64,000 bases of DNA from Escherichia coli (GTDB lineage: Bacteria; Pseudomonadota; Gammaproteobacteria; Enterobacterales; Enterobacteriaceae): NCBI RefSeq assembly GCF_017348835.2, contig NZ_CP071375.1; one strand, given 5' to 3'. Below, piece by piece: positions 210 through 33,676 of this stretch. The notes under the pieces were generated by a model that was not told the origin of the DNA, ran no database searches, and was given only the letters and a program-made list of their open reading frames with translations. Numbering within the stretch: the first letter of the stretch is position 1; each line of letters begins with the position of its first letter. The position numbers and the translations under genes were made by a program.

Positions 210-1403
210 GTGTTTCAAAAAGTTGACGCCTACGCTGGCGACCCGATTCTTACGCTTATGGAGCGTTTTAAAGAAGACCCTCGCAGCGACAAAGTGAATT
301 TAAGTATCGGTCTGTACTACAACGAAGACGGAATTATTCCACAATTGAAAGCCGTGGCTGATGCAGAAGCGCGCCTGAATGCGGTGCCTCATGGCGCTTC
401 GCTTTATTTACCGATGGAAGGGCTTAACAGCTATCGCCATGCCATTGCGCCGCTGCTGTTTGGTGCCGACCATCCGGTACTGCAACAACAGCGCGTAGCA
501 ACCATTCAAACCCTTGGCGGCTCAGGGGCATTGAAAGTGGGCGCGGATTTCCTGAAACGCTACTTTCCGGAATCAGGCGTCTGGGTCAGCGATCCTACCT
601 GGGAAAACCACGTAGCAATATTCGCCGGGGCTGCATTCGAAGTAAGTACTTACCCCTGGTATGACGAAGCGACTAACGGCGTGCGCTTTAATGACCTGTT
701 GGCGATGCTGAAAACATTACCTGCCCGCAGTATTGTGTTGCTGCATCCATGTTGCCACAACCCAACGGGTGCCGATCTCACTAATGACCAGTGGGATGCG
801 GTGATTGAAATTCTCAAAGCCCGCGAGCTTATCCCATTCCTTGATATTGCCTATCAAGGATTTGGTGCCGGTATGGAAGAGGATGCCTACGCCATTCGCG
901 CCATTGCCAGCGCTGGATTACCCGCTCTGGTGAGCAATTCGTTCTCGAAAATTTTCTCCCTTTACGGCGAGCGCGTTGGCGGACTTTCTGTTCTGTGTGA
1001 AGATGCCGAAGCTGCAGGCCGCGTACTGGGGCAATTGAAAGCAACAGTTCGCCGCAACTACTCCAGCCCGCCGAATTTTGGTGCGCAGGTGGTGGCTGCG
1101 GTGCTGAATGACGAGGCATTGAAAGCCAGCTGGCTGGCGGAAGTAGAAGAGATGCGTACTCGCATTCTGGCAATGCGTCAGGAACTGGTGAAGGTATTGA
1201 GCACAGAGATGCCAGAACGCAATTTCGATTATCTGCTTAATCAGCGCGGCATGTTCAGTTATACCGGTTTAAGTGCCGCTCAGGTTGACCGACTACGTGA
1301 AGAATTTGGTGTCTATCTCATCGCCAGCGGTCGCATGTGTGTCGCCGGGTTAAATACGGCAAATGTACAACGTGTGGCAAAGGCGTTTGCTGCGGTGATG
1401 TAA
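210..1403 (+). CDS. tyrB: Aromatic-amino-acid aminotransferase (PLP-dependent, class I)
   Basis: 397-aa ORF; N-terminus (M)[19 protein letters not shown] and [17 protein letters not shown] lysine motif recognised; GTG start at 210 chosen by homology, ORF-track start 168 is an upstream extension. Confidence 0.95.
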
Positions 1404-2232: not shown

Positions 2233-3225
<993 letters not shown>

Positions 3226-3335: not shown

Positions 3336-3752
3336 ATGTGGTATCAAAAGACGCTCACGATTAGCGCCAAATCTCGTGGGTTTCATCTGGTAACGGATGA
3401 AATTCTGAATCAGCTGGCTGATATGCCGCGCGTTAACATCGGCTTACTGCATCTGTTGCTGCAACATACCTCCGCCTCTCTGACACTTAATGAGAACTGC
3501 GATCCCACCGTACGCCACGACATGGAGCGTTTTTTCCTCCGCACCGTTCCCGACAACGGAAATTATGAGCATGACTATGAGGGAGCAGACGATATGCCTT
3601 CTCATATCAAATCCTCAATGCTGGGAACATCGCTTGTATTGCCGTTACATAAAGGACGTATTCAGACCGGCACCTGGCAAGGCATCTGGCTGGGGGAACA
3701 TCGCATCCACGGCGGATCGCGTCGCATCATCGCGACACTACAAGGGGAGTAA
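3336..3752 (+). CDS. yjbQ: UPF0047 family protein YjbQ
   Basis: 138-aa [27 protein letters not shown]... recognised as YjbQ. Confidence 0.9.
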
Positions 3753-3755
3753 AAA

Positions 3756-4112
3756 ATGACCATTTCGGAGTTGCTACAATATTGCATGGCAAAACCAGGC
3801 GCAGAACAGAGCGTGCATAACGACTGGAAAGCGACGCAGATCAAAGTGGAGGATGTACTGTTTGCGATGGTGAAAGAAGTAGAAAATCGCCCAGCTGTTT
3901 CGCTGAAAACCAGCCCGGAGCTGGCGGAGCTGCTACGTCAGCAGCACAGCGATGTGCGTCCTAGCCGCCATCTGAATAAAGCGCACTGGAGCACCGTGTA
4001 TCTCGACGGTTCGCTGCCGGATTCGCAAATCTATTATCTGGTGGATGCGTCTTATCAGCAGGCAGTGAATTTACTACCGGAAGAAAAGCGTAAATTGCTG
4101 GTACAACTCTGA
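3756..4112 (+). CDS. yjbR: Uncharacterized protein YjbR
   Basis: 118-aa ORF 4 nt after yjbQ stop, likely co-transcribed. Confidence 0.9.
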   Translation: MTISELLQYCMAKPGAEQSVHNDWKATQIKVEDVLFAMVKEVENRPAVSLKTSPELAELLRQQHSDVRPSRHLNKAHWSTVYLDGSLPDSQIYYLVDASYQQAVNLLPEEKRKLLVQL

Positions 4113-4118
4113 AAGGAA

Positions 4119-4141
4119 AAGGCCGCTCAGAAAGCGGCCTT
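4119..4141. terminator. Bidirectional hairpin between convergent yjbR and uvrA
   Basis: aaggccgct-cagaaa-gcggcctt perfect hairpin between the two stop codons. Confidence 0.6.
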
Positions 4142-4146
4142 AACGA

Positions 4147-6969
4147 TTACAGCATCGGCTTGAGGAAGCGTGCCGTATGCGAAGCTTCGCACTCCGCGAC
4201 GGTTTCTGGCGTACCGGAGACGAGGATTTCGCCGCCGCCACTGCCGCCTTCTGGTCCCAGGTCGACAATCCAGTCAGCGGTTTTGATCACGTCGAGATTG
4301 TGCTCAATCACCACAATGGTATTGCCCTGATCGCGCAGTTTATGCAGCACGTCGAGGAGTTGCTGAATATCGGCGAAGTGCAGACCGGTGGTCGGCTCGT
4401 CGAGAATATACAGCGTCTGCCCGGTGCCGCGTTTTGACAGCTCACGCGCCAGCTTCACGCGCTGGGCTTCACCACCAGAAAGTGTGGTTGCGGACTGCCC
4501 CAGGCGAATGTACGTCAGACCAACGTCCATCAACGTTTGCAGCTTACGCGCCAGAGCTGGCACCGCATCAAAGAACTCACGCGCCTCTTCGATGGTCATA
4601 TCCAGCACTTCGTGGATGGTTTTGCCTTTGTACTTAATTTCCAGCGTTTCACGGTTATAGCGTTTACCTTTGCACTGATCGCACGGCACGTAGATATCCG
4701 GCAGGAAGTGCATCTCCACTTTGATCACACCGTCGCCCTGACAGGCTTCGCAGCGCCCGCCACGGACGTTAAAGCTGAAACGTCCTGGCGTATAACCACG
4801 CGCACGGGATTCCGGTACGCCCGCAAACAGTTCGCGCACAGGTGTAAACACGCCGGTATAGGTCGCCGGGTTAGAACGTGGAGTACGACCAATTGGGCTT
4901 TGGTCGATATCGATCACTTTATCGAAATGCTCCAGCCCCTGAATATCGCGATACGGTGCCGGTTCGGCGATGGTCGCACCATTCAACTGGCGTTGGGCAA
5001 TCGGGAACAGTGTGTCGTTAATCAGCGTCGATTTACCGGAACCTGAAACCCCTGTGATGCAGGTAAACAGACCGACTGGCAGCGTGAGCGTCACGTCCTT
5101 CAGGTTGTTGCCGCGTGCACCTGTCAGCTTCAGCACTTTTTCTGGATTCGCCGGAACGCGTTTCTTCGGCACTTCAATCTTGCGTTTACCGCTCATGTAC
5201 TGCCCGGTCAACGATTCAGGCACCGCCATAATCGCTTCCAGCGGACCTTCTGCGACCACTTCACCGCCGTGAACACCCGCACCAGGACCGATATCGATCA
5301 CATGGTCAGCGGCGCGAATTGCGTCTTCGTCATGCTCCACCACAATCACGGTATTACCGAGATCGCGCAGATGGATAAGCGTACCCAACAGGCGCTCGTT
5401 ATCGCGCTGGTGCAGGCCGATAGACGGCTCGTCCAGTACATACATAACGCCAACCAGGCCCGCACCAATCTGGCTCGCCAGACGGATACGCTGGGCTTCA
5501 CCGCCGGAAAGTGTTTCTGCCGAGCGGGAAAGTGTCAGGTAATTCAGGCCGACGTTAACGAGGAATTTCAGACGATCGCCGATCTCTTTAAGGATTTTTT
5601 CTGCAATCTTCGCCCGCTGACCTGCGAGTTTGAGATTGTTGAAGAATTCCATCGCATGACCAATGCTCATGTCGGAGATGGCGGGCAGCGGCGTATTCTC
5701 GACATACACGTGGCGCGCTTCCCGACGCAGACGCGTCCCTTCGCAGCTGGCACACGGACGATTGCTGATGAACTTGGCTAATTCTTCGCGTACCGCGCTG
5801 GACTCCGTCTCTTTATAACGGCGCTCCATATTGTGCAGCACGCCTTCGAACGGATGACGACGAATGGAGGTATCGCCACGATCGTTCATGTATTTGAATT
5901 CAATGTTTTCTTTGCCAGAACCGTACAACACCACTTTATGCACGTTCGCGCTCAGGCTGCCCCACGGAGCTTCGACGTCGAACTTATAGTGATCTGCCAG
6001 CGATTTCAGCATCTGGAAATAATAGAAGTTGCGGCGATCCCAGCCACGGATCGCACCGCCAGCCAGTGACAGCTCGGGGTTTTGGATCACGCGGTCAGGA
6101 TCGAAATATTGCTGTACGCCAAGGCCGTCACAGGTCGGGCAGGCACCTGCCGGGTTGTTAAACGAAAACAGTCGCGGCTCCAGTTCACGCATACTGTAGC
6201 CGCAAATTGGGCAGGCGAAGTTGGCGGAGAACAGCAGCTCTTCCGCTTTCGGGTCGTCCATATCCGCCACTACCGCTGTACCACCGGAAAGCTCCAGCGC
6301 GGTTTCAAACGACTCCGCAAGACGTTGGGTAAGATCGTCACGCACCTTGAAGCGATCAACCACCACTTCAATAGTGTGTTTCTTTTGCAGTTCCAGTTTC
6401 GGCGGATCGGAAAGATCGCAGACTTCGCCATCAATACGAGCACGGATGTAACCCTGGCTTGCCAGGTTCTCCAGCGTTTTGGTGTGTTCGCCTTTGCGCT
6501 CTTTAATGATTGGCGCGAGCAGCATCAGACGCTTGCCTTCCGGCTGCGACAGCACGTTATCCACCATCTGGCTGACGGTTTGCGCCGCCAGCGGGACGTC
6601 GTGGTCCGGACAGCGCGGTTCGCCGACGCGGGCGAACAACAAACGCAAATAGTCGTGGATTTCGGTGATTGTCCCCACCGTAGAACGCGGGTTATGAGAC
6701 GTCGATTTCTGCTCAATTGAGATGGCAGGAGAAAGCCCCTCAATATGATCGACGTCCGGCTTTTCCATCAGTGACAGAAACTGCCGCGCGTAGGCGGAAA
6801 GGGATTCAACGTAACGGCGCTGCCCTTCGGCATATAAGGTGTCGAAAGCGAGCGAGGATTTGCCAGAACCCGAAAGCCCGGTCACGACAATGAGCTTGTC
6901 GCGGGGGATAACGAGGTTGATGTTTTTGAGATTATGGGTGCGGGCGCCCCGAACTTCGATCTTATCCAT
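4147..6969 (-). CDS. uvrA: Excinuclease ABC subunit A
   Basis: 940-aa ORF with two ABC ATPase Walker A motifs ([20 protein letters not shown]) and zinc-finger cysteines. Confidence 0.97.
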
Positions 6970-7052
6970 TCACCTTTCCCGGATTAAACGCTTTTTTGCC
7001 CGGTGGCATGGTGCTACCGGCGATCACAAACGGTTAATTATGACACAAATTG

Positions 7053-7072
7053 ACCTGAATGAATATACAGTA
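7053..7072. promoter_or_regulatory. LexA (SOS) box in the divergent uvrA/ssb control region
   Basis: Reverse complement tactgtatattcattcaggt fits CTGT-N8-ACAG. Confidence 0.8.
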
Positions 7073-7223
7073 TTGGAATGCATTACCCGGAGTGTTGTGT
7101 AACAATGTCTGGCCAGGTTTGTTTCCCGGAACCGAGGTCACAACATAGTAAAAGCGCTATTGGTAATGGTACAATCGCGCGTTTACACTTATTCAGAACG
7201 ATTTTTTTTCAGGAGACACGAAC

Positions 7224-7760
7224 ATGGCCAGCAGAGGCGTAAACAAGGTTATTCTCGTTGGTAATCTGGGTCAGGACCCGGAAGTACGCTACATGCCAAA
7301 TGGTGGCGCAGTTGCCAACATTACGCTGGCTACTTCCGAATCCTGGCGTGATAAAGCGACCGGCGAGATGAAAGAGCAGACTGAATGGCACCGCGTTGTG
7401 CTGTTCGGCAAACTGGCAGAAGTGGCCAGCGAATATCTGCGTAAAGGTTCTCAGGTTTATATCGAAGGTCAGCTGCGTACCCGTAAATGGACCGATCAAT
7501 CCGGTCAGGATCGCTACACCACTGAAGTGGTGGTGAACGTTGGCGGCACCATGCAGATGCTGGGTGGTCGTCAGGGTGGCGGCGCTCCGGCAGGTGGTAA
7601 TATCGGTGGCGGTCAGCCACAGGGCGGTTGGGGTCAGCCTCAGCAGCCGCAGGGTGGCAATCAGTTCAGCGGCGGCGCGCAGTCTCGCCCGCAGCAGTCC
7701 GCCCCGGCAGCGCCGTCTAACGAGCCGCCGATGGATTTTGATGACGATATTCCGTTCTGA
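7224..7760 (+). CDS. ssb: Single-stranded DNA-binding protein
   Basis: 178-aa [31 protein letters not shown]..., Gly/Gln-rich tail ending DFDDDIPF. Confidence 0.97.
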
Positions 7761-7823
7761 TTTGTCATTAAAACAATAGGTTATATTGTTTTAAGGTGGA
7801 TGATTAAAGCATCTGCCAGCCAT

Positions 7824-7852
7824 AAAAAAGAAGCCTCCGTTATGGAGGCTTC
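7824..7852 (-). terminator. Hairpin terminator after yjcB (probably also serving ssb)
   Basis: gaagcctcc-gttat-ggaggcttc hairpin with an A6 run on the + strand (T6 on the - strand). Confidence 0.55.
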
Positions 7853-7858
7853 TACGTA

Positions 7859-8140
7859 TCAGGTCAAAATCATTGGCCATTGTGGCGGTGTCTGATTCAT
7901 CTCTTCAATCATCACCGACTCGATGTTGTGCCAGATGGCGGTGATATCCGCCATTGTGATGCCAAGCAACCCCATCGCGAACCAGCAGGCGGAAACCACG
8001 CCCAGACCGCTGCTGATCACCGCAAGCCCGACATAATCAGACCGACGAAAACGGATGTTGAGCGTGCTGGCCAGAAACATCATTACGGCACTAAGAAGTT
8101 GCCAGCGAAGAAGAACCACGCCAGTGGTGAGGGTAGCCAT
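7859..8140 (-). CDS. yjcB: Small inner-membrane protein YjcB
   Basis: 93 aa from MATLTTGVVLLRW...; hydrophobic; the ORF-track 126-aa version is an upstream extension. Confidence 0.75.
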   Translation of the reverse strand: MATLTTGVVLLRWQLLSAVMMFLASTLNIRFRRSDYVGLAVISSGLGVVSACWFAMGLLGITMADITAIWHNIESVMIEEMNQTPPQWPMILT

Positions 8141-8568
8141 CAAACAATTCCTCTGAAAAGAGCCGATGCCCTGGACAGCGCGGCGTTGTTCACGGGAGGC
8201 GTGGTACACTCTGGCTATCGCGGGGCTTGCAGAACACAAAAATGAAACACTCTGTTTGTTTCATTAATTTTGTGAACTATATCACAATTGATTGTTTGTT
8301 AGCCATATTAGGACGTGACTTTTATTGCTGTACAAATTATGTGGTTTTTCAGTGGCATTAAGGGTATATCTTCCCGCCGCCTCTGTATTCCTGTAGAAAA
8401 TTAATTTTGAATATCAATGAATTATTTTCATCCAGGTGACGATTAAAAAGGTATCAATTTCAAATCAGGCAAAAGTGCTATTTATACCGTAAGATTTATC
8501 TAAAGACGTCGGTAGCCAGGGTTTCACCTTGCAATGGCCGGGTATAAACAGGCAGGAAATTGATAGCA

Positions 8569-10155
8569 ATGAGTCATCGTGCACGACACCAATTACTGGC
8601 GTTGCCGGGCATTATATTTTTAGTTCTCTTTCCCATCATTCTGTCGCTATGGATTGCCTTCCTTTGGGCAAAATCAGAAGTGAATAATCAGCTCCGAACC
8701 TTTGCTCAGCTGGCGCTGGATAAATCTGAGCTGGTCATTCGTCAGGCAGATTTAGTGAGCGATGCAGCTGAACGCTATCAGGGGCAAGTTTGCTCCCCAG
8801 CCCATCAAAAGCGAATGTTAAATATTATTCGTGGCTATCTTTATATTAATGAATTGATCTATGCCCGTGATAACCATTTTTTATGCTCATCGCTGATAGC
8901 GCCTGTAAACGGCTATACGATTGCACCGGCCGATTATAAGCGTGACCCTAACGTTTCTATCTATTATTACCGCGATACGCCTTTTTTCTCTGGCTATAAA
9001 ATGACCTATATGCAGCGGGGAAATTATGTGGCGGTTATCAACCCTCTCTTCTGGAGTGAAGTGATGTCTGATGATCCGACATTGCAATGGGGTGTGTATG
9101 ATACGGTGACGAAAACCTTTTTCTCGTTAAGCAATGAGGCCTCGGCAGCAACGTTTTCTCCGCTGATTCATTTGAAGGATTTAACCGTACAACGAAATGG
9201 CTATTTATATGCGACAGTTTATTCGACAAAACGCCCAATTGCAGCCATTGTTGCGACTTCATATCAACGTCTTATAACCCATTTTTATAATCATCTTATT
9301 TTTGCGTTACCCGCCGGTATTTTAGGGAGTCTTGTTCTGCTATTACTCTGGCTACGTATTCGACAAAACTATTTGTCTCCCAAACGCAAATTGCAACGCG
9401 CCCTCGACAAACATCAACTTTGCCTTTATTACCAGCCAATAATCGATATCAAAACAGAAAAATGTATCGGTGCTGAAGCGTTGTTACGTTGGCCTGGTGA
9501 GCAGGGGCAAGTAATGAATCCGGCAGAGTTTATTCCGCTGGCAGAAAAGGAGGGGATGATAGAACAGGTAACTGATTATGTTATTGATAATGTCTTCCGC
9601 GATCTGGGCGCGTACCTGGCAACACATGCCGATCGCTATGTTTCTATTAACCTGTCGGCCTCCGATTTTCATACGTCACGGTTGATAGCGCGAATCAATC
9701 AGAAAACAGAGCAACATGCGGTGCGCCCGCAGCAAATTAAATTTGAAGTGACTGAACATGCATTTCTTGATGTTGACAAAATGACGCCGATTATTCTGGC
9801 TTTCCGCCAGGCTGGTTACGAAGTGGCAATTGATGATTTTGGTATTGGCTACTCTAACTTGCATAACCTTAAATCATTGAATGTCGATATTTTGAAAATC
9901 GATAAATCGTTTGTTGAGACGCTGACCACCCATAAAACCAGTCATTTGATTGCGGAACATATCATCGAGCTGGCGCACAGCCTGGGGTTAAAAACGATCG
10001 CTGAAGGCGTCGAAACTGAGGAGCAGGTAAACTGGCTGCGCAAACGCGGTGTGCGCTATTGCCAGGGATGGTTCTTTGCGAAGGCGATGCCGCCGCAGGT
10101 GTTTATGCAATGGATGGAGCAATTACCCGCGCGGGAGTTAACGCGCGGGCAATAA
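8569..10155 (+). CDS. pdeC: c-di-GMP phosphodiesterase, CSS-motif periplasmic domain plus EAL domain
   Basis: 528 aa from [13 protein letters not shown]-domain motifs ([22 protein letters not shown]). Confidence 0.92.
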
Positions 10156-10157
10156 AA

Positions 10158-10481
10158 CTACAGGCGGTGGCGATAATCGCTGGGAGTGCGATCAAACTGC
10201 CGACGGAAAACGCGGGAGAAGGTCTGCTGCGAGACATAACCCAGGTCCATTGCGATATCAAAAATCGGACGCTCGGTGGTGCGCAACTCAACGGCGGCCA
10301 GTAACAGGCGGCGTTGGCGAATGTAATCGCCAAGCGTCTGATGCGTCACCGTGCGGAACATCCGTTGCAAGTACCACTTTGAATAGCCTGATTTTTTTGC
10401 GACGACATCAATGTTAAGCGGCTGGTCAATATGCTCGTCAATCCATGCGATAAGATCCTGAATAATTTTCTGATGGGACAT
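10158..10481 (-). CDS. soxS: AraC-family superoxide-response transcriptional activator
   Basis: 107-aa ORF MSHQKIIQDLIAWIDEHIDQPLNIDVVAKKSGYSKWYLQRMF... Confidence 0.97.
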   Translation of the reverse strand: MSHQKIIQDLIAWIDEHIDQPLNIDVVAKKSGYSKWYLQRMFRTVTHQTLGDYIRQRRLLLAAVELRTTERPIFDIAMDLGYVSQQTFSRVFRRQFDRTPSDYRHRL

Positions 10482-10537
10482 AAATCTGCCTCTTTTCAGT
10501 GTTCAGTTCGTTAATTCATCTGTTGGGGAGTATAATT

Positions 10538-10555
10538 CCTCAAGTTAACTTGAGG
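10538..10555. promoter_or_regulatory. SoxR operator in the divergent soxS/soxR promoter region
   Basis: Perfect palindrome cctcaagttaacttgagg between the two start codons. Confidence 0.85.
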
Positions 10556-10566
10556 TAAAGCGATTT

Positions 10567-11031
10567 ATGGAAAAGAAATTACCCCGCATTAAAGCGCTGC
10601 TAACCCCCGGCGAAGTGGCGAAACGCAGCGGTGTGGCGGTATCGGCGCTGCATTTCTATGAAAGCAAAGGGTTGATTACCAGTATCCGTAATAGCGGCAA
10701 TCAGCGACGATATAAACGTGATGTGTTGCGATATGTCGCAATTATCAAAATTGCTCAGCGTATTGGCATTCCTCTCGCGACCATTGGTGAAGCGTTTGGC
10801 GTGTTGCCCGAAGGGCATACGTTAAGTGCGAAAGAGTGGAAACAGCTTTCGTCCCAATGGCGAGAAGAGTTGGATCGGCGCATTCATACCTTAGTGGCGC
10901 TGCGTGACGAACTGGACGGATGTATTGGTTGTGGCTGCCTTTCGCGCAGTGATTGCCCGTTGCGTAACCCGGGCGACCGCTTAGGAGAAGAAGGTACCGG
11001 CGCACGCTTGCTGGAAGATGAACAAAACTAA
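10567..11031 (+). CDS. soxR: MerR-family redox-sensing regulator with [2Fe-2S] cluster
   Basis: 154-aa ORF; MerR helix-turn-helix; cysteine cluster [12 protein letters not shown]. Confidence 0.97.
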
Positions 11032-29081: not shown

Positions 29082-29771
29082 TTAACCGTTGGTTAATTTT
29101 TCAAACTCTTCACACCCGGTATCAAACCCTTCCATACAGCTCAGGTTCAACCAGTGCAGCGCCTTTTGCTTGTTCTTCTCGATAAAACCTTCTTCACCGT
29201 TTAAGAACATCATTCCCGCCCAGTACTCGGAATAACCGGTTCGGGAAATTGCAGAGCTGCGTTTGAAATACCAGGTTGCCTTGTCATCGTCGGCCTTAAT
29301 GCCCACGCCGTTGGCGTAAATCAAACCAAGCAGCATTTGGGCATCGACGGCGGAGTCATTCTCCAGATCTTCCGAGGCGTTTTCTAACAGCGAAATCGCC
29401 TTTGGATAATCCGGTTTACCCGCTTGAGTATTTACCAGAATATGCGCCAGCGTTACTTCACCTTCTTTACTGCCCGCTTGCGCCGCTTTCTCTGCAAGAA
29501 CTTTTGCTTGTGGATAGTCCAGACTGACCGGATTGGTGATTTTGATCTGCGCCAACAGCGCGCAGGCATCAGCATCACCGCTGTCGGCGGCTTTCTGTGC
29601 CCAATATTCGGCTTTGCTCAAATCGCCGGAGCTAAACCAGCTGTCGGCAAGAAAATATTGTGCGCGTCGGTCCCCGGCCTCTGCTGCCTTTAAATACTGG
29701 CTGCCAGGCTCGGAGTCGTTCGCGTGGGCAAAGAATGTCAAAAACAACATCAATGCGATAATTTTTTTCAT
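29082..29771 (-). CDS. yjcO: Sel1/TPR-like repeat periplasmic protein
   Basis: 229-aa ORF with signal peptide and repeated AxxWxxKAAxxG Sel1-like units. Confidence 0.88.
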   Translation of the reverse strand: MKKIIALMLFLTFFAHANDSEPGSQYLKAAEAGDRRAQYFLADSWFSSGDLSKAEYWAQKAADSGDADACALLAQIKITNPVSLDYPQAKVLAEKAAQAGSKEGEVTLAHILVNTQAGKPDYPKAISLLENASEDLENDSAVDAQMLLGLIYANGVGIKADDDKATWYFKRSSAISRTGYSEYWAGMMFLNGEEGFIEKNKQKALHWLNLSCMEGFDTGCEEFEKLTNG

Positions 29772-29864
29772 TTTGATAATACGATTGGGTAGGGAGTAAC
29801 CAGTATAAAGAGTTCGAATGGATAAAAAAACAGCCTCCGAAAGGAGGCTGTAGAAAGGACTGTA

Positions 29865-32012
29865 TTACGCCAGTGCCGCTTCGCGCAGGCGAGTTTTCAA
29901 CTTGTTGTACTCGTCAATCACGTACTGCTCGGCGGCGCGCTGATCGGCGATCGGCTCGACGCGCACGGCGCAGTATTTGTATTCCGGCGTTTTCGTAATC
30001 GGGCTTAAGTTTTCGGTAACCAGCTCGTTACAGGCACCAATCCACCACTGGTAGGTCATGTAAATCGCCCCTTTGTTCGGACGATCGCTGACCTGCGCAC
30101 GGGTGATAATTTTGCCTTTACGCGAGTGCACCCAAACCAATGCCTCATCTTCAATACCCAGACGTTTGGCGTCTTCGGTATTGATTTGTGCGTAGCCAGG
30201 TTCATCAGCCAGCGCCGCCAGTGCCGCACAGTTACCGGTCATCGAACGGCAAGAGTAGTGACCAACTTCACGCACCGTTGACAGTACCATCGGGTACTCG
30301 TCGGTGAGTTTGTCGATTGGCGCTACCCAGTCGCAGGTGAAGAACTGCGCCAGACCGTTCGGGGTATCAAACTTCTCTTTAAACAGATAAGAAGTCCCCT
30401 GATCGGCATCTGAAGTATCGCGGCAAGGCCACTGAATGAAGCCCAGTTCGCCCATTTTCTCGTAAGTCGCACCGTAGAAATCCGGGCACAGATGACGCAA
30501 CTCATCCCAGATCTCCTGGGTGTTGTTGTAGTGCATCGGATAACCCATACGGGTGGCGATTTCACTGATGATTTGCCAGTCCGTTTTCAGATCCCATTTC
30601 GGTTCAACTGCTTTGAAGAAACGCTGGAAGCCACGGTCAGCCGCAGTAAACACGCCTTCATGCTCGCCCCACGACGTTGACGGTAAAATAACATCCGCCG
30701 CCGACGCGGTTTTGGTCATAAAGATGTCCTGAACGATGACCAGTTCCAGATCTTCAAAGGCTTTACGTACTGCCGACAGCTCCGCGTCAGTTTGTAGCGG
30801 ATCTTCGCCCATAATGTACGCGGCACGCACTTCGCCATGCGCTGCGCGGTGCGGCAGCTCGCTGATGCGATAACCGGTATGAGCAGGCAGGCTTTCCACG
30901 CCCCAGGCTTTGGCGAATTTCTCGCGGTTAGCCGGATCTTTCACGTACTGGTATCCCGGATACGTATCCGGCAGCGCGCCCATATCGCAGGCACCCTGCA
31001 CGTTGTTCTGACCACGAACCGGGTTTACACCCGCATGCGGCTTACCGAGGTTACCGGTCAGCATCGCGAGGCTGGTCAGAGAACGCACGGTTTCCACGCC
31101 CTGGTAGAACTGGGTTACACCCATGCCCCACAGGATGGCGGCGCTTTTCGCCTGGGCATACATCCGTGCCGCCTGACGAATCTCACTGGCGCTGACGCCG
31201 GTGATATCTTCAACCGACTCCGGCGTGTAGCCTTCAACGATTTTACGATACTCTTCAAAGCCTTCTGTACGGGAAGCGACGAACGCTTTGTCGTACAAAT
31301 TTTCTTCAATAATGACATGGCCCATCGCATTCAACAGCGCGATGTTCGAGCCATTTTTCAGTGCAATGTGCATGTCAGCAATGCGCGCGGTTTCAATTTT
31401 GCGCGGATCGCAGACGATAATTTTCGCCCCGTTACGTTTAGCGTTAATTACGTGATTCGCTACGATTGGGTGGGAATCCGCCGGGTTGTACCCGAAAACG
31501 AACACTAAATCTGTATTATCAATTTCGTTAATAGCATTGCTCATTGCGCCATTACCGACCGATTGGTGCAGACCTGCAACCGATGGTCCGTGTCAGACAC
31601 GAGCGCAGCAGTCAACGTTATTGGTACCAATAACGGCGCGCGCAAATTTTTGCATTACATAGTTGGTTTCGTTACCCGTACCACGCGAGGAGCCGGTCGT
31701 CTGGATGGCATCCGGACCGTACTTCTCTTTGATGGCGCTCAGGCGCTCGGCAACGTAATTCAGTGCCTCATCCCAGGAAACAGGTTCGAGTTTGCCGCCA
31801 CGCTGGCGACGGATCATGGGGGTTTTCAGGCGCGGGGTCAGGATCTGGGTATCGTTAATGAAATCCCAGCCATAATAACCCTTCAGACACAGGGTACCCT
31901 GGTTGGTTTTCCCCTGCGCTGCCTCCGCCCGGACGATTTTGCCGTTATCGACGATCAGGTTGATTTTGCAACCTGATGCGCAATAGGGGCAAACCGTGAC
32001 GACTTTTTTCAT
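29865..32012 (-). CDS. fdhF: Formate dehydrogenase H, selenocysteine-containing molybdoenzyme
   Basis: Two ORF-track pieces are one 715-codon frame joined through an in-frame TGA at 31593-31595 (codon 140, reads ...CCARV-U-HGPSVAGLHQSVGNG...); N-terminal CPYCASGC Fe-S motif. Confidence 0.95.
31545..31592 (-). promoter_or_regulatory. SECIS (selenocysteine insertion) element immediately 3' of the fdhF UGA
   Basis: Position immediately downstream of the recoded UGA; bacterial SECIS elements lie within about 40 nt 3' of UGA; structure not folded here. Confidence 0.7.
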
Positions 32013-32063
32013 CGGTCTCGCTCCAGTTAATCAAATCACGCATACGCGCTCTCGACTACAGTA

Positions 32064-32079
32064 TGCATCTTTTATGCCA
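32064..32079 (-). promoter_or_regulatory. Sigma54 -24/-12 promoter of fdhF
   Basis: Minus-strand TGGCATaaaagATGCA with GG-N10-GC spacing, about 50 bp upstream of the fdhF ATG. Confidence 0.75.
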
Positions 32080-32209
32080 CATTTTATTTGGGGTCATTCC
32101 CTGATATTACGGGCACTATTTATTCAAAACTCTGACGAAAAACAGGCTGTCGTCAGTTTTGACGTGACGAAACGAAATACCGCGTGACAGCCATCACGCG
32201 GCAGACATT

Positions 32210-33676
32210 TTATTTTTTCTCGACGACGGGACCTGCCTGATACCCGCCGCCCAGCGATTTCATCAACTGAATGCTTTGGATCACCCGGCGGCTGTCCAGC
32301 ATCAGTAATGACATCTCTTCGGCAAGTACTGGCAACCGGGCTTCAGTGGCCTGTAAGCGGCTGGTTAAGCCGCGCTGATAGGCGGCCTCGGCAGCGCGCT
32401 GGGTGAAGAGCGTTGCTTCCACGCGTTCAGACTGCATTTCTCGCTCGTCGTTGAGCGTTTGCAGACGCGTGCCGTTGACGGCAACGTCACGCACCGCGTT
32501 CAGTACTGACTGGTTGTAACGTTCAATCATCATGTTGCTGGCGGCGCGCGTACCTTCGAGATTGGCATTCAACCGTCCACCGTCAAACAGCGGCAATTTC
32601 AGACCCGGGATGAAGTTGAACTGGCGACTGGTTTTTTTGAATAAGGTATCCAGGTGGATGGAGTCCAGACCGAAAAACGCTTTGATATCAAAGCTTGGGT
32701 AGAACAGCGCCCGCGCGGAATCCACCTGATCTAATGACACCTGAACATACCAGCGCATCGCTTGCAGATCCGGGCGTCTGGCGAGCAACTCATAAGAGAG
32801 TGTCGCCGGAATGCCAGTCTGGACTTGCGGTAATGCCACCGGTTTGATCTCCGGCATATCGCTGGCTCCCGCGCCAATCAATGCGCGCAGAGATTCTCGC
32901 GTTTCGGTGATTTGCCCTTTAACGGCAGCAATTTGTTTATCGACCGCCAGAATCTGTGCCCGCGCGCCGTGGAAAGGTACTTGCGCTTCCAGACCGTGCG
33001 CCACTTTACTCTGGTGCGCTTTCACCGCGTAATCAATCACATCGCGAGTTTGTTCTAACAGATCGAGCATCTGATAGCTGGCCTGCATACTGTAATAAAG
33101 CTGCGCTACGCCCGTGGTCAGCGATAGCTCTACTGCTGCGGTTTCTGCCAGCGCGGCATTATGCGCGCCAATGGCGGCGGCAACCGCTGAGCGATGCACA
33201 CCCCACAAATCAAGATCCAGTCCGGCAAACAAACCGACTGTGGCTTCCGTATAGTACGGCCCGTCCATACCCAGTGCTGGCGCATCCATTGAATAAGGGC
33301 TTAAAAAGCCGTTCGCCGAGACGCGTTGGCGGTTGAGCATCCCTAACGCTGCGACCTGTAATTGTGAACCGGCATCTAACAAATCGGCCTGGGACTGCGC
33401 TTTTTCTTCCCGCAGTTTCGCTTCGGCGAGGGTGTGTGAACCGCTTAGCGTCCGCTGGATCAGGGCATCCAACTGCGGGTCATTGAGTTGTTTCCACCAC
33501 TGCGCCTGCGGCCAGCCGGAGCTGGCAAGATGAATATCATCGGCCAGTTTGATTTGTTCCGGTTTGAGCTGTTGATGAGGCGCAGAATCCTTGCGTACCA
33601 GGGCACAGCCGGAAATCAGCGTCGTGCTGCCGAGAATGCTGCACAACAGCAGACGTGAAAGTTGACGATTGATCAT
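32210..33676 (-). CDS. mdtP: Outer-membrane efflux lipoprotein (NodT/OMF family)
   Basis: 488-aa ORF with lipobox (LISGCA). Confidence 0.92.
   Translation of the reverse strand: MINRQLSRLLLCSILGSTTLISGCALVRKDSAPHQQLKPEQIKLADDIHLASSGWPQAQWWKQLNDPQLDALIQRTLSGSHTLAEAKLREEKAQSQADLLDAGSQLQVAALGMLNRQRVSANGFLSPYSMDAPALGMDGPYYTEATVGLFAGLDLDLWGVHRSAVAAAIGAHNAALAETAAVELSLTTGVAQLYYSMQASYQMLDLLEQTRDVIDYAVKAHQSKVAHGLEAQVPFHGARAQILAVDKQIAAVKGQITETRESLRALIGAGASDMPEIKPVALPQVQTGIPATLSYELLARRPDLQAMRWYVQVSLDQVDSARALFYPSFDIKAFFGLDSIHLDTLFKKTSRQFNFIPGLKLPLFDGGRLNANLEGTRAASNMMIERYNQSVLNAVRDVAVNGTRLQTLNDEREMQSERVEATLFTQRAAEAAYQRGLTSRLQATEARLPVLAEEMSLLMLDSRRVIQSIQLMKSLGGGYQAGPVVEKK

Follow-up and report, generated by a model that had tools for sequence, protein, structure and literature searches.

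The fdhF gene of Escherichia coli is the founding example of selenocysteine recoding in bacteria, bringing together an in-frame UGA at codon 140, a SECIS element, SelB and the sigma-54/FhlA formate regulon. In strain K-12 the gene (b4079) is situated between mdtP and yjcO, and consists of 715 codons, the 140th of which is TGA. The rule described for the fdhF SECIS specifies a 17-nt apical hairpin that lies 11 nt from the UGA, and occupies +15 to +31 (PMC8659212). At the UGA itself, SelB competes with RF2 (PMC4513850). Upstream of the gene, ChIP-seq of sigma-54 in K-12 identified the site OS41 (GTGGCATAAAAGATGCA), which was assigned to fdhF (PMC4591121), while a loose consensus, TGWC-N6-GWCA, has been published for FhlA (PMC7658346).

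Here we describe the fdhF locus in a 64,000-nt stretch of E. coli DNA, referred to in its entirety as the window, which had initially been annotated from its sequence as a textbook case of this system. That description was apt: the locus is almost certainly the canonical E. coli fdhF, encoding the selenomolybdoenzyme FDH-H of the formate hydrogenlyase complex, with a recoded UGA, a SECIS and a sigma-54 promoter. The finding is already known and adds nothing new on mechanism, and the locus is ordinary save for one very rare silent base change within the SECIS.

Results

A single reading frame containing one in-frame UGA

Translation of the frame from 32012 to 29865 met exactly one internal stop, the TGA at codon 140 (Table 1), beyond which the frame runs on for 575 codons. 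A mechanical list of open reading frames presented the gene in two pieces, 31593..32012 (139 aa) and 29865..31544 (559 aa), and the 16 codons separating the TGA from the ATG of the second piece (31592-31545) stay in frame. The initial annotation had joined these pieces into one gene read through the TGA as selenocysteine 140, an assignment upheld by the colinearity of the product with FDH-H over 715 residues, and by the presence of TGA at the same codon in K-12; it had also positioned the feature, which lies on the minus strand, correctly. With cysteine placed at position 140 instead of selenocysteine for the protein searches, the product matched residues 1-715 of 715 of the FDH-H structures 1AA6, 1FDO, 1FDI, 2IV2 and 7Z0T (1668.7 bits), and scored 1094.8 bits against the NCBIfam family TIGR01591 (Fdh-alpha), for which the cut-off is 666.25. 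At the N-terminus, the translation contains the cysteine cluster C8-x2-C11-x3-C15, together with C42; in the 1FDO structure these four residues are the ligands of the [4Fe-4S] centre.

Comparison with K-12 fdhF, found at the same chromosomal position, revealed a nucleotide identity of 99.2%, and the sigma-54 element, upstream repeat region and terminator position all matched. Across 2,345 nt, comprising the 197-nt upstream intergenic region and the coding sequence, there were 19 substitutions and no indels: the replacement V20I, a single intergenic difference, and 17 changes that are synonymous, among them Gly142 GGC>GGA within the SECIS. As 17 of the 18 coding differences are synonymous, and these are distributed on both sides of the TGA, purifying selection appears to have acted on the whole fdhF frame. 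The intergenic difference, at 32088 (-76 from the ATG), reflects the window carrying the majority E. coli allele, which was found in 3,866 of 5,418 records.

The gene is widespread, with the 2.6-kb fdhF region present in 5,419 of 5,426 complete E. coli genomes, annotated as fdhF and located between mdtP and yjcO. The suggestion in the initial annotation that pipelines often split this gene did not hold, as RefSeq represents fdhF as a single 2,148-nt CDS in strains PE164, F2_81 and K-12; only the naive open reading frame track divides it. The gene looks monocistronic, because one terminator begins 14 nt past its stop codon, and a second follows mdtP (32203-32178).

Table 1. Features of the fdhF locus, in window coordinates, and of the associated trans factors, in coordinates of the PE164 genome
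Feature	Position	Strand	Description
fdhF CDS	29865..32012	-	715 codons plus TAA; encodes formate dehydrogenase H; ATG at 32012, stop at 29865
fdhF intrinsic terminator	29830..29851	-	9-bp stem and T-run
Bacterial SECIS	31546..31600	-	Rfam SECIS_2 (RF01988), full 55-nt model; 80.7 bits
Apical stem-loop, GGUUGCAGGUCUGCACC	31565..31581	-	17 nt; identified by folding, putatively SelB-binding by analogy
Rare synonymous SECIS variant	31587	-	C>A at +9, Gly142 GGC>GGA; in the Rfam structure, a lower-helix C-G pair becomes A/G
In-frame UGA at codon 140, read as selenocysteine	31593..31595	-	identified by translation; same codon as the K-12 TGA
Shine-Dalgarno sequence, GGAG	32021..32024	-	8 nt before the ATG; read from the sequence
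Sigma-54 (-24/-12) promoter, TGGCATAAAAGATGCA	32064..32079	-	TGGCAT-AAAAG-ATGCA; GG at 32078-32077, GC at 32066-32065
Probable FhlA upstream activating sequence	32132..32172	-	two direct TTTCGTCA repeats 32 nt apart, and the inverted repeat CTGACGA/TCGTCAG
tRNA-Sec (selC)	PE164 65055-65149		anticodon TCA
selA and selB	PE164 141745-144977		
rpoN	PE164 537394-538827		
fhlA	PE164 1048042-1050120		adjoins hypA-E and hycA-I
selD	PE164 2841085-2842128		

A SECIS defined by its structure rather than its stability

Downstream of the UGA, the initial annotation had predicted a SECIS, and the Rfam covariance model SECIS_2 recovered one over positions 1-55 of 55, scoring above the gathering score of 70 (E = 6.6e-17). 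The UGA itself (31595-31593) corresponds to model positions 6-8, with the hairpin lying within the reading frame, directly 3' of this codon. The apical stem-loop extends from +15 to +31, counted from the U of the UGA, and begins 11 nt past the UGA, conforming to the published position rule (PMC8659212). A GGUC loop (G23, U24) and a bulged U characterise this stem-loop, and partition-function folding assigned its pairs probabilities of 0.8-1.0, with the exception of U17-A29 at approximately 0.5, arising from two bulged-U alternatives. Relative to the enterobacterial fdhF-type family that RF01988 represents, the window shares the apical hairpin and its spacing from the UGA, but differs at the pair of model positions 14-42, which is A/G rather than the consensus C-G, and in a lower helix that is predicted to have slipped by one register.

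The hairpin had also been expected to be stable, and this was only partly borne out. The 51 nt from the UGA do fold, at -14.2 kcal/mol, but without any excess stability, as 81 of 200 dinucleotide shuffles matched this value (z = -0.15); the SECIS 55-mer was likewise not beyond chance relative to such shuffles (z = -1.09). However, the canonical K-12 SECIS 55-mer was similarly unremarkable (z = -1.23). Hairpin stability was consequently dropped as a means of recognising a SECIS, since the K-12 element fails by the same measure, and the Rfam covariance model was used instead. Hence the stability test is non-discriminating, and does not capture a defining feature of a SECIS.

A rare silent allele in the lower helix

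The substitution responsible for the A/G pair is the C>A change at +9, which costs 6.4 bits on SECIS_2, the K-12 SECIS scoring 87.1 bits. Among 5,419 matched E. coli, the exact variant 55-mer was found in only two records, PE164 (China) and F2_81 (Australia), both of which are pig isolates. Including the source of the window, there are three known carriers, two of them being these pig isolates. The canonical SECIS 55-mer, by comparison, was identical in 5,412 of 5,420 E. coli records, making it the most invariant of four 55-nt windows tested across fdhF; the other three, which provide only a rough baseline, were non-identical in 103, 4,465 and 552 records.

Were this change to weaken the SECIS, selenocysteine insertion and the level of FDH-H would be lowered, or otherwise altered, in a pig-associated lineage. 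The near-invariance of the canonical element, exceeding that of the three controls, suggests selection on synonymous sites, and the replacement of a consensus C-G pair, with its attendant loss in covariance score, is in keeping with a functional cost. When the consensus structure was imposed on the variant, the energy was -14.1 kcal/mol, against -19.7 kcal/mol for the canonical sequence, yet the minimum free energy of the variant was -19.0 kcal/mol, against -19.7 kcal/mol, as the predicted one-base slip regains four Watson-Crick pairs (G8-C39, A9-U38, C10-G37 and C11-G36). Nor did folding indicate any alteration to the pair probabilities of the putative SelB-binding apical hairpin, or to its 11-nt spacing, and the occurrence of the allele in isolates from China and Australia, as well as in the source strain of the window, points to its persistence in the lineage. 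Hence a weakened SECIS is improbable, and we give similarly little credence to the lower helix being under selection, with C>A representing a functional allele that would change the register of this helix, and through it the efficiency or the selenium-dependence with which UGA is recoded in the lineage. Rather, the C>A change is most likely neutral, because the lower helix is already unwound by the time of UGA decoding, and because the predicted effect is a one-base slip of this helix that leaves the apical hairpin unchanged.

The sigma-54 promoter and putative FhlA enhancer

The GG-N10-GC element noted upstream of fdhF in the initial annotation was recovered on the gene strand, 52 nt upstream of the ATG, with the GG and GC of TGGCATAAAAGATGCA exactly 10 nt apart. 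The corresponding 17-mer of the window, GTGGCATAAAAGATGCA, is identical to the K-12 site OS41 assigned to fdhF (PMC4591121), and judged by this identity only, the promoter would be occupied by the sigma-54 holoenzyme. The bare pattern TGGCA-N7-TGCA was not enriched, with two matches in the 64-kb window versus 1.06 expected, and therefore the evidence for the promoter consists of its position and its identity to the ChIP-seq site. The second match is at 742-757, antisense within tyrB. Taking the GC as -13/-12 would place the transcription start near 32053, giving a leader of approximately 41 nt.

Such a pattern should arise by chance roughly once in 64 kb, which is also what would make a coincidental match conceivable, with fdhF instead being transcribed from a sigma-70 promoter. 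However, no sigma-70-like site was found upstream of fdhF on the minus strand, the 17-mer is that of a sigma-54 ChIP-seq site belonging to this very gene, and both rpoN and fhlA are present in PE164, such that this explanation is very improbable.

Birkmann and Bock reportedly located the upstream activating sequence of fdhF approximately 110 bp upstream. In the window, the repeat region upstream of the sigma-54 promoter covers approximately -80 to -120 relative to the likely transcription start, and is identical to that of K-12, the sole intergenic difference being that at 32088. The non-coding 55-mer around the repeats (32125-32179) was identical in 5,413 of 5,420 E. coli records. This near-invariance, combined with identity to K-12, fits an FhlA enhancer. 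Scanning upstream of fdhF for the published FhlA consensus (PMC7658346) yielded only matches with two to three mismatches, of which approximately 2.3 per 200 nt are expected by chance; one was centred at -104.5. The region was therefore judged by its identity to K-12 and its invariance among E. coli records, and is the probable FhlA enhancer, to which the activator would bind. Like the promoters of the FhlA/sigma-54 formate regulon (fdhF, hyc and hyp), the locus combines a -24/-12 GG-N10-GC element with repeats lying some 100 bp upstream of the likely start, and fhlA and rpoN are present in PE164; no difference from the regulon promoters was detected.

Trans factors in a near-identical genome

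The window corresponds to the reverse complement of positions 4545450-4609449 of the PE164 chromosome (NZ_CP114128.1), with 63,999 of 64,000 bases matching. The searches for the sel genes, rpoN and fhlA were made in PE164, whose only difference from the window over these 64,000 bases is this one. The initial annotation had proposed that selABCD should be found elsewhere in the genome, and all four genes were located in PE164 (Table 1). Neither these four nor rpoN, fhlA and the hyc and hyp genes carry a pseudogene flag. The PE164 chromosome is inverted around the terminus relative to K-12 synteny.

That the TGA is a real stop, with the locus being a split or decayed gene that retains a 139-aa fragment and a 559-aa open reading frame (29865..31544) either untranslated or translated separately, would suit the two fragments returned by a mechanical ORF finder, the sizeable fraction of ribosomes terminating at the UGA even in the wild type, where recoding is 30-40% (PMC4513850), and the termination that would dominate without selenium, but it is negligibly probable when both parts form one frame colinear with the 715-aa FDH-H, K-12 carries the identical TGA, the SECIS exceeds the Rfam threshold, synonymous changes, located on either side of the TGA, make up 17 of the 18 coding differences from K-12, and the selenocysteine machinery is intact in PE164. 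Nothing contradicts the reading of the locus as fdhF with selenocysteine at position 140.

Discussion

The sequence anatomy of this locus, its family memberships and the trans factors of a near-identical genome are direct observations. By extension from the K-12 literature, transcription would begin approximately 41 nt upstream of the ATG, with the sigma-54 holoenzyme positioned at the -24/-12 element, as its identity to the K-12 site suggests. FhlA, activated by formate under anaerobiosis, would then bind the repeats approximately 80-120 bp upstream, and open the closed complex through ATP hydrolysis.

The subsequent steps of translation are those of an established mechanism, and by analogy with K-12 are likely to apply equally to this copy of fdhF. 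Selenocysteyl-tRNA(Sec) would be made on the selC tRNA by SerRS, SelA and SelD. The C-terminal domain of SelB would bind the apical hairpin of 17 nt that begins 11 nt past UGA-140, and SelB-GTP, competing with RF2, would bring the Sec-tRNA(Sec) to the A site. The product of this decoding would be selenocysteine 140, the molybdenum ligand in FDH-H. From the K-12 literature, binding, induction and selenocysteine insertion are all expected to occur at this locus.

The gene is also instructive for quality control, as a naive open reading frame track breaks a selenoprotein gene, whereas the combination of a covariance model and a check of the reading frame resolves it. At the level of the population, a fresh observation is that the SECIS 55-mer and the 55-mer of the putative upstream enhancer are each identical in approximately 99.9% of 5,400 complete E. 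coli genomes. At the locus itself, only the rare allele in the lower helix of the SECIS, which is probably neutral, is mildly new. This allele represents a natural variant that could serve to probe for any role of the lower helix.

The selenocysteine recoding element of fdhF

The SECIS hairpin, which enables UGA-140 of fdhF to be read as selenocysteine, carries a C>A substitution at 31587 in its lower helix. This change is synonymous (Gly142, GGC>GGA), and the lower helix is predicted to shift register by one base. The 55-mer containing the substitution is rare, with exact copies in only two of the 5,419 matched records. Across the same E. coli collection, 7-8 of 5,426 genomes lacked fdhF, and, of the approximately 5,419 matches to the fdhF SECIS, four fell on records typed as plasmids.

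Sequences upstream of the fdhF promoter

Ahead of the sigma-54 promoter lies a non-coding region that was as invariant as the SECIS itself, being unchanged in 5,413 of 5,420 E. coli records. This is presumably the enhancer bound by FhlA, the activator of the formate regulon. The window contains a second match to the sigma-54-like pattern TGGCA-N7-TGCA, which is probably a chance occurrence, because approximately one such match is expected per window.

Positions and context of the features discussed
Feature	Position	Strand	Context	Details
Conserved non-coding stretch	window 32125-32179		upstream of sigma-54 promoter	TTTCGTCA twice, plus inverted repeat
Second TGGCA-N7-TGCA match	window 742-757	-	antisense within tyrB	TGGCAACATGGATGCA
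REP/BIME-type element	window 29007-29077		between gltP and yjcO	Rfam naRNA4 (RF02564) match
aphA (acid phosphatase)	window 2512-3225			in-frame TAA at 3031-3033, codon 174
Frameshifted eilA, type III secretion translocon/chaperone genes (ETT2-like remnant); rhuM fragment	L003 (PE164 chromosome stretch) 3593-10575 and 14848-15149		adjoin selC in PE164	

Other features, and comparison with pig isolates

The element between gltP and yjcO scored 77.1 bits against its Rfam family, exceeding the gathering score of 59.5. The in-frame TAA of aphA is a true nonsense mutation rather than an instance of UGA recoding as in fdhF; the gene also carries a pseudogene flag in the pig isolate PE164. Over all 64,000 bases, the window and PE164 differ solely at 32739, within codon 313 of mdtP, where GTG (Val) in the window is replaced by GCG (Ala) in both PE164 and a second pig isolate, F2_81, the latter having been compared over 28700-33300 of the window. 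The sequence must accordingly derive either from a third strain, nearly identical to these two and absent from the complete RefSeq genomes, or from a different version of one of them.

Relative to the K-12 gene order, the PE164 chromosome (NZ_CP114128.1) has an inversion around the terminus (approximately 2.2-2.9 Mb; stretches L005-L007), such that umuDC...kdsA and selD...prc follow the K-12 direction, while the rest of the assembly is reversed. Its formate hydrogenlyase activator, FhlA (stretch L015, 18042-20120), has through an annotation slip been given the symbol "flhA", which belongs to a flagellar gene. The eilA and type III secretion genes and the rhuM fragment beside the tRNA-Sec gene, selC, represent a typical island insertion at this locus.
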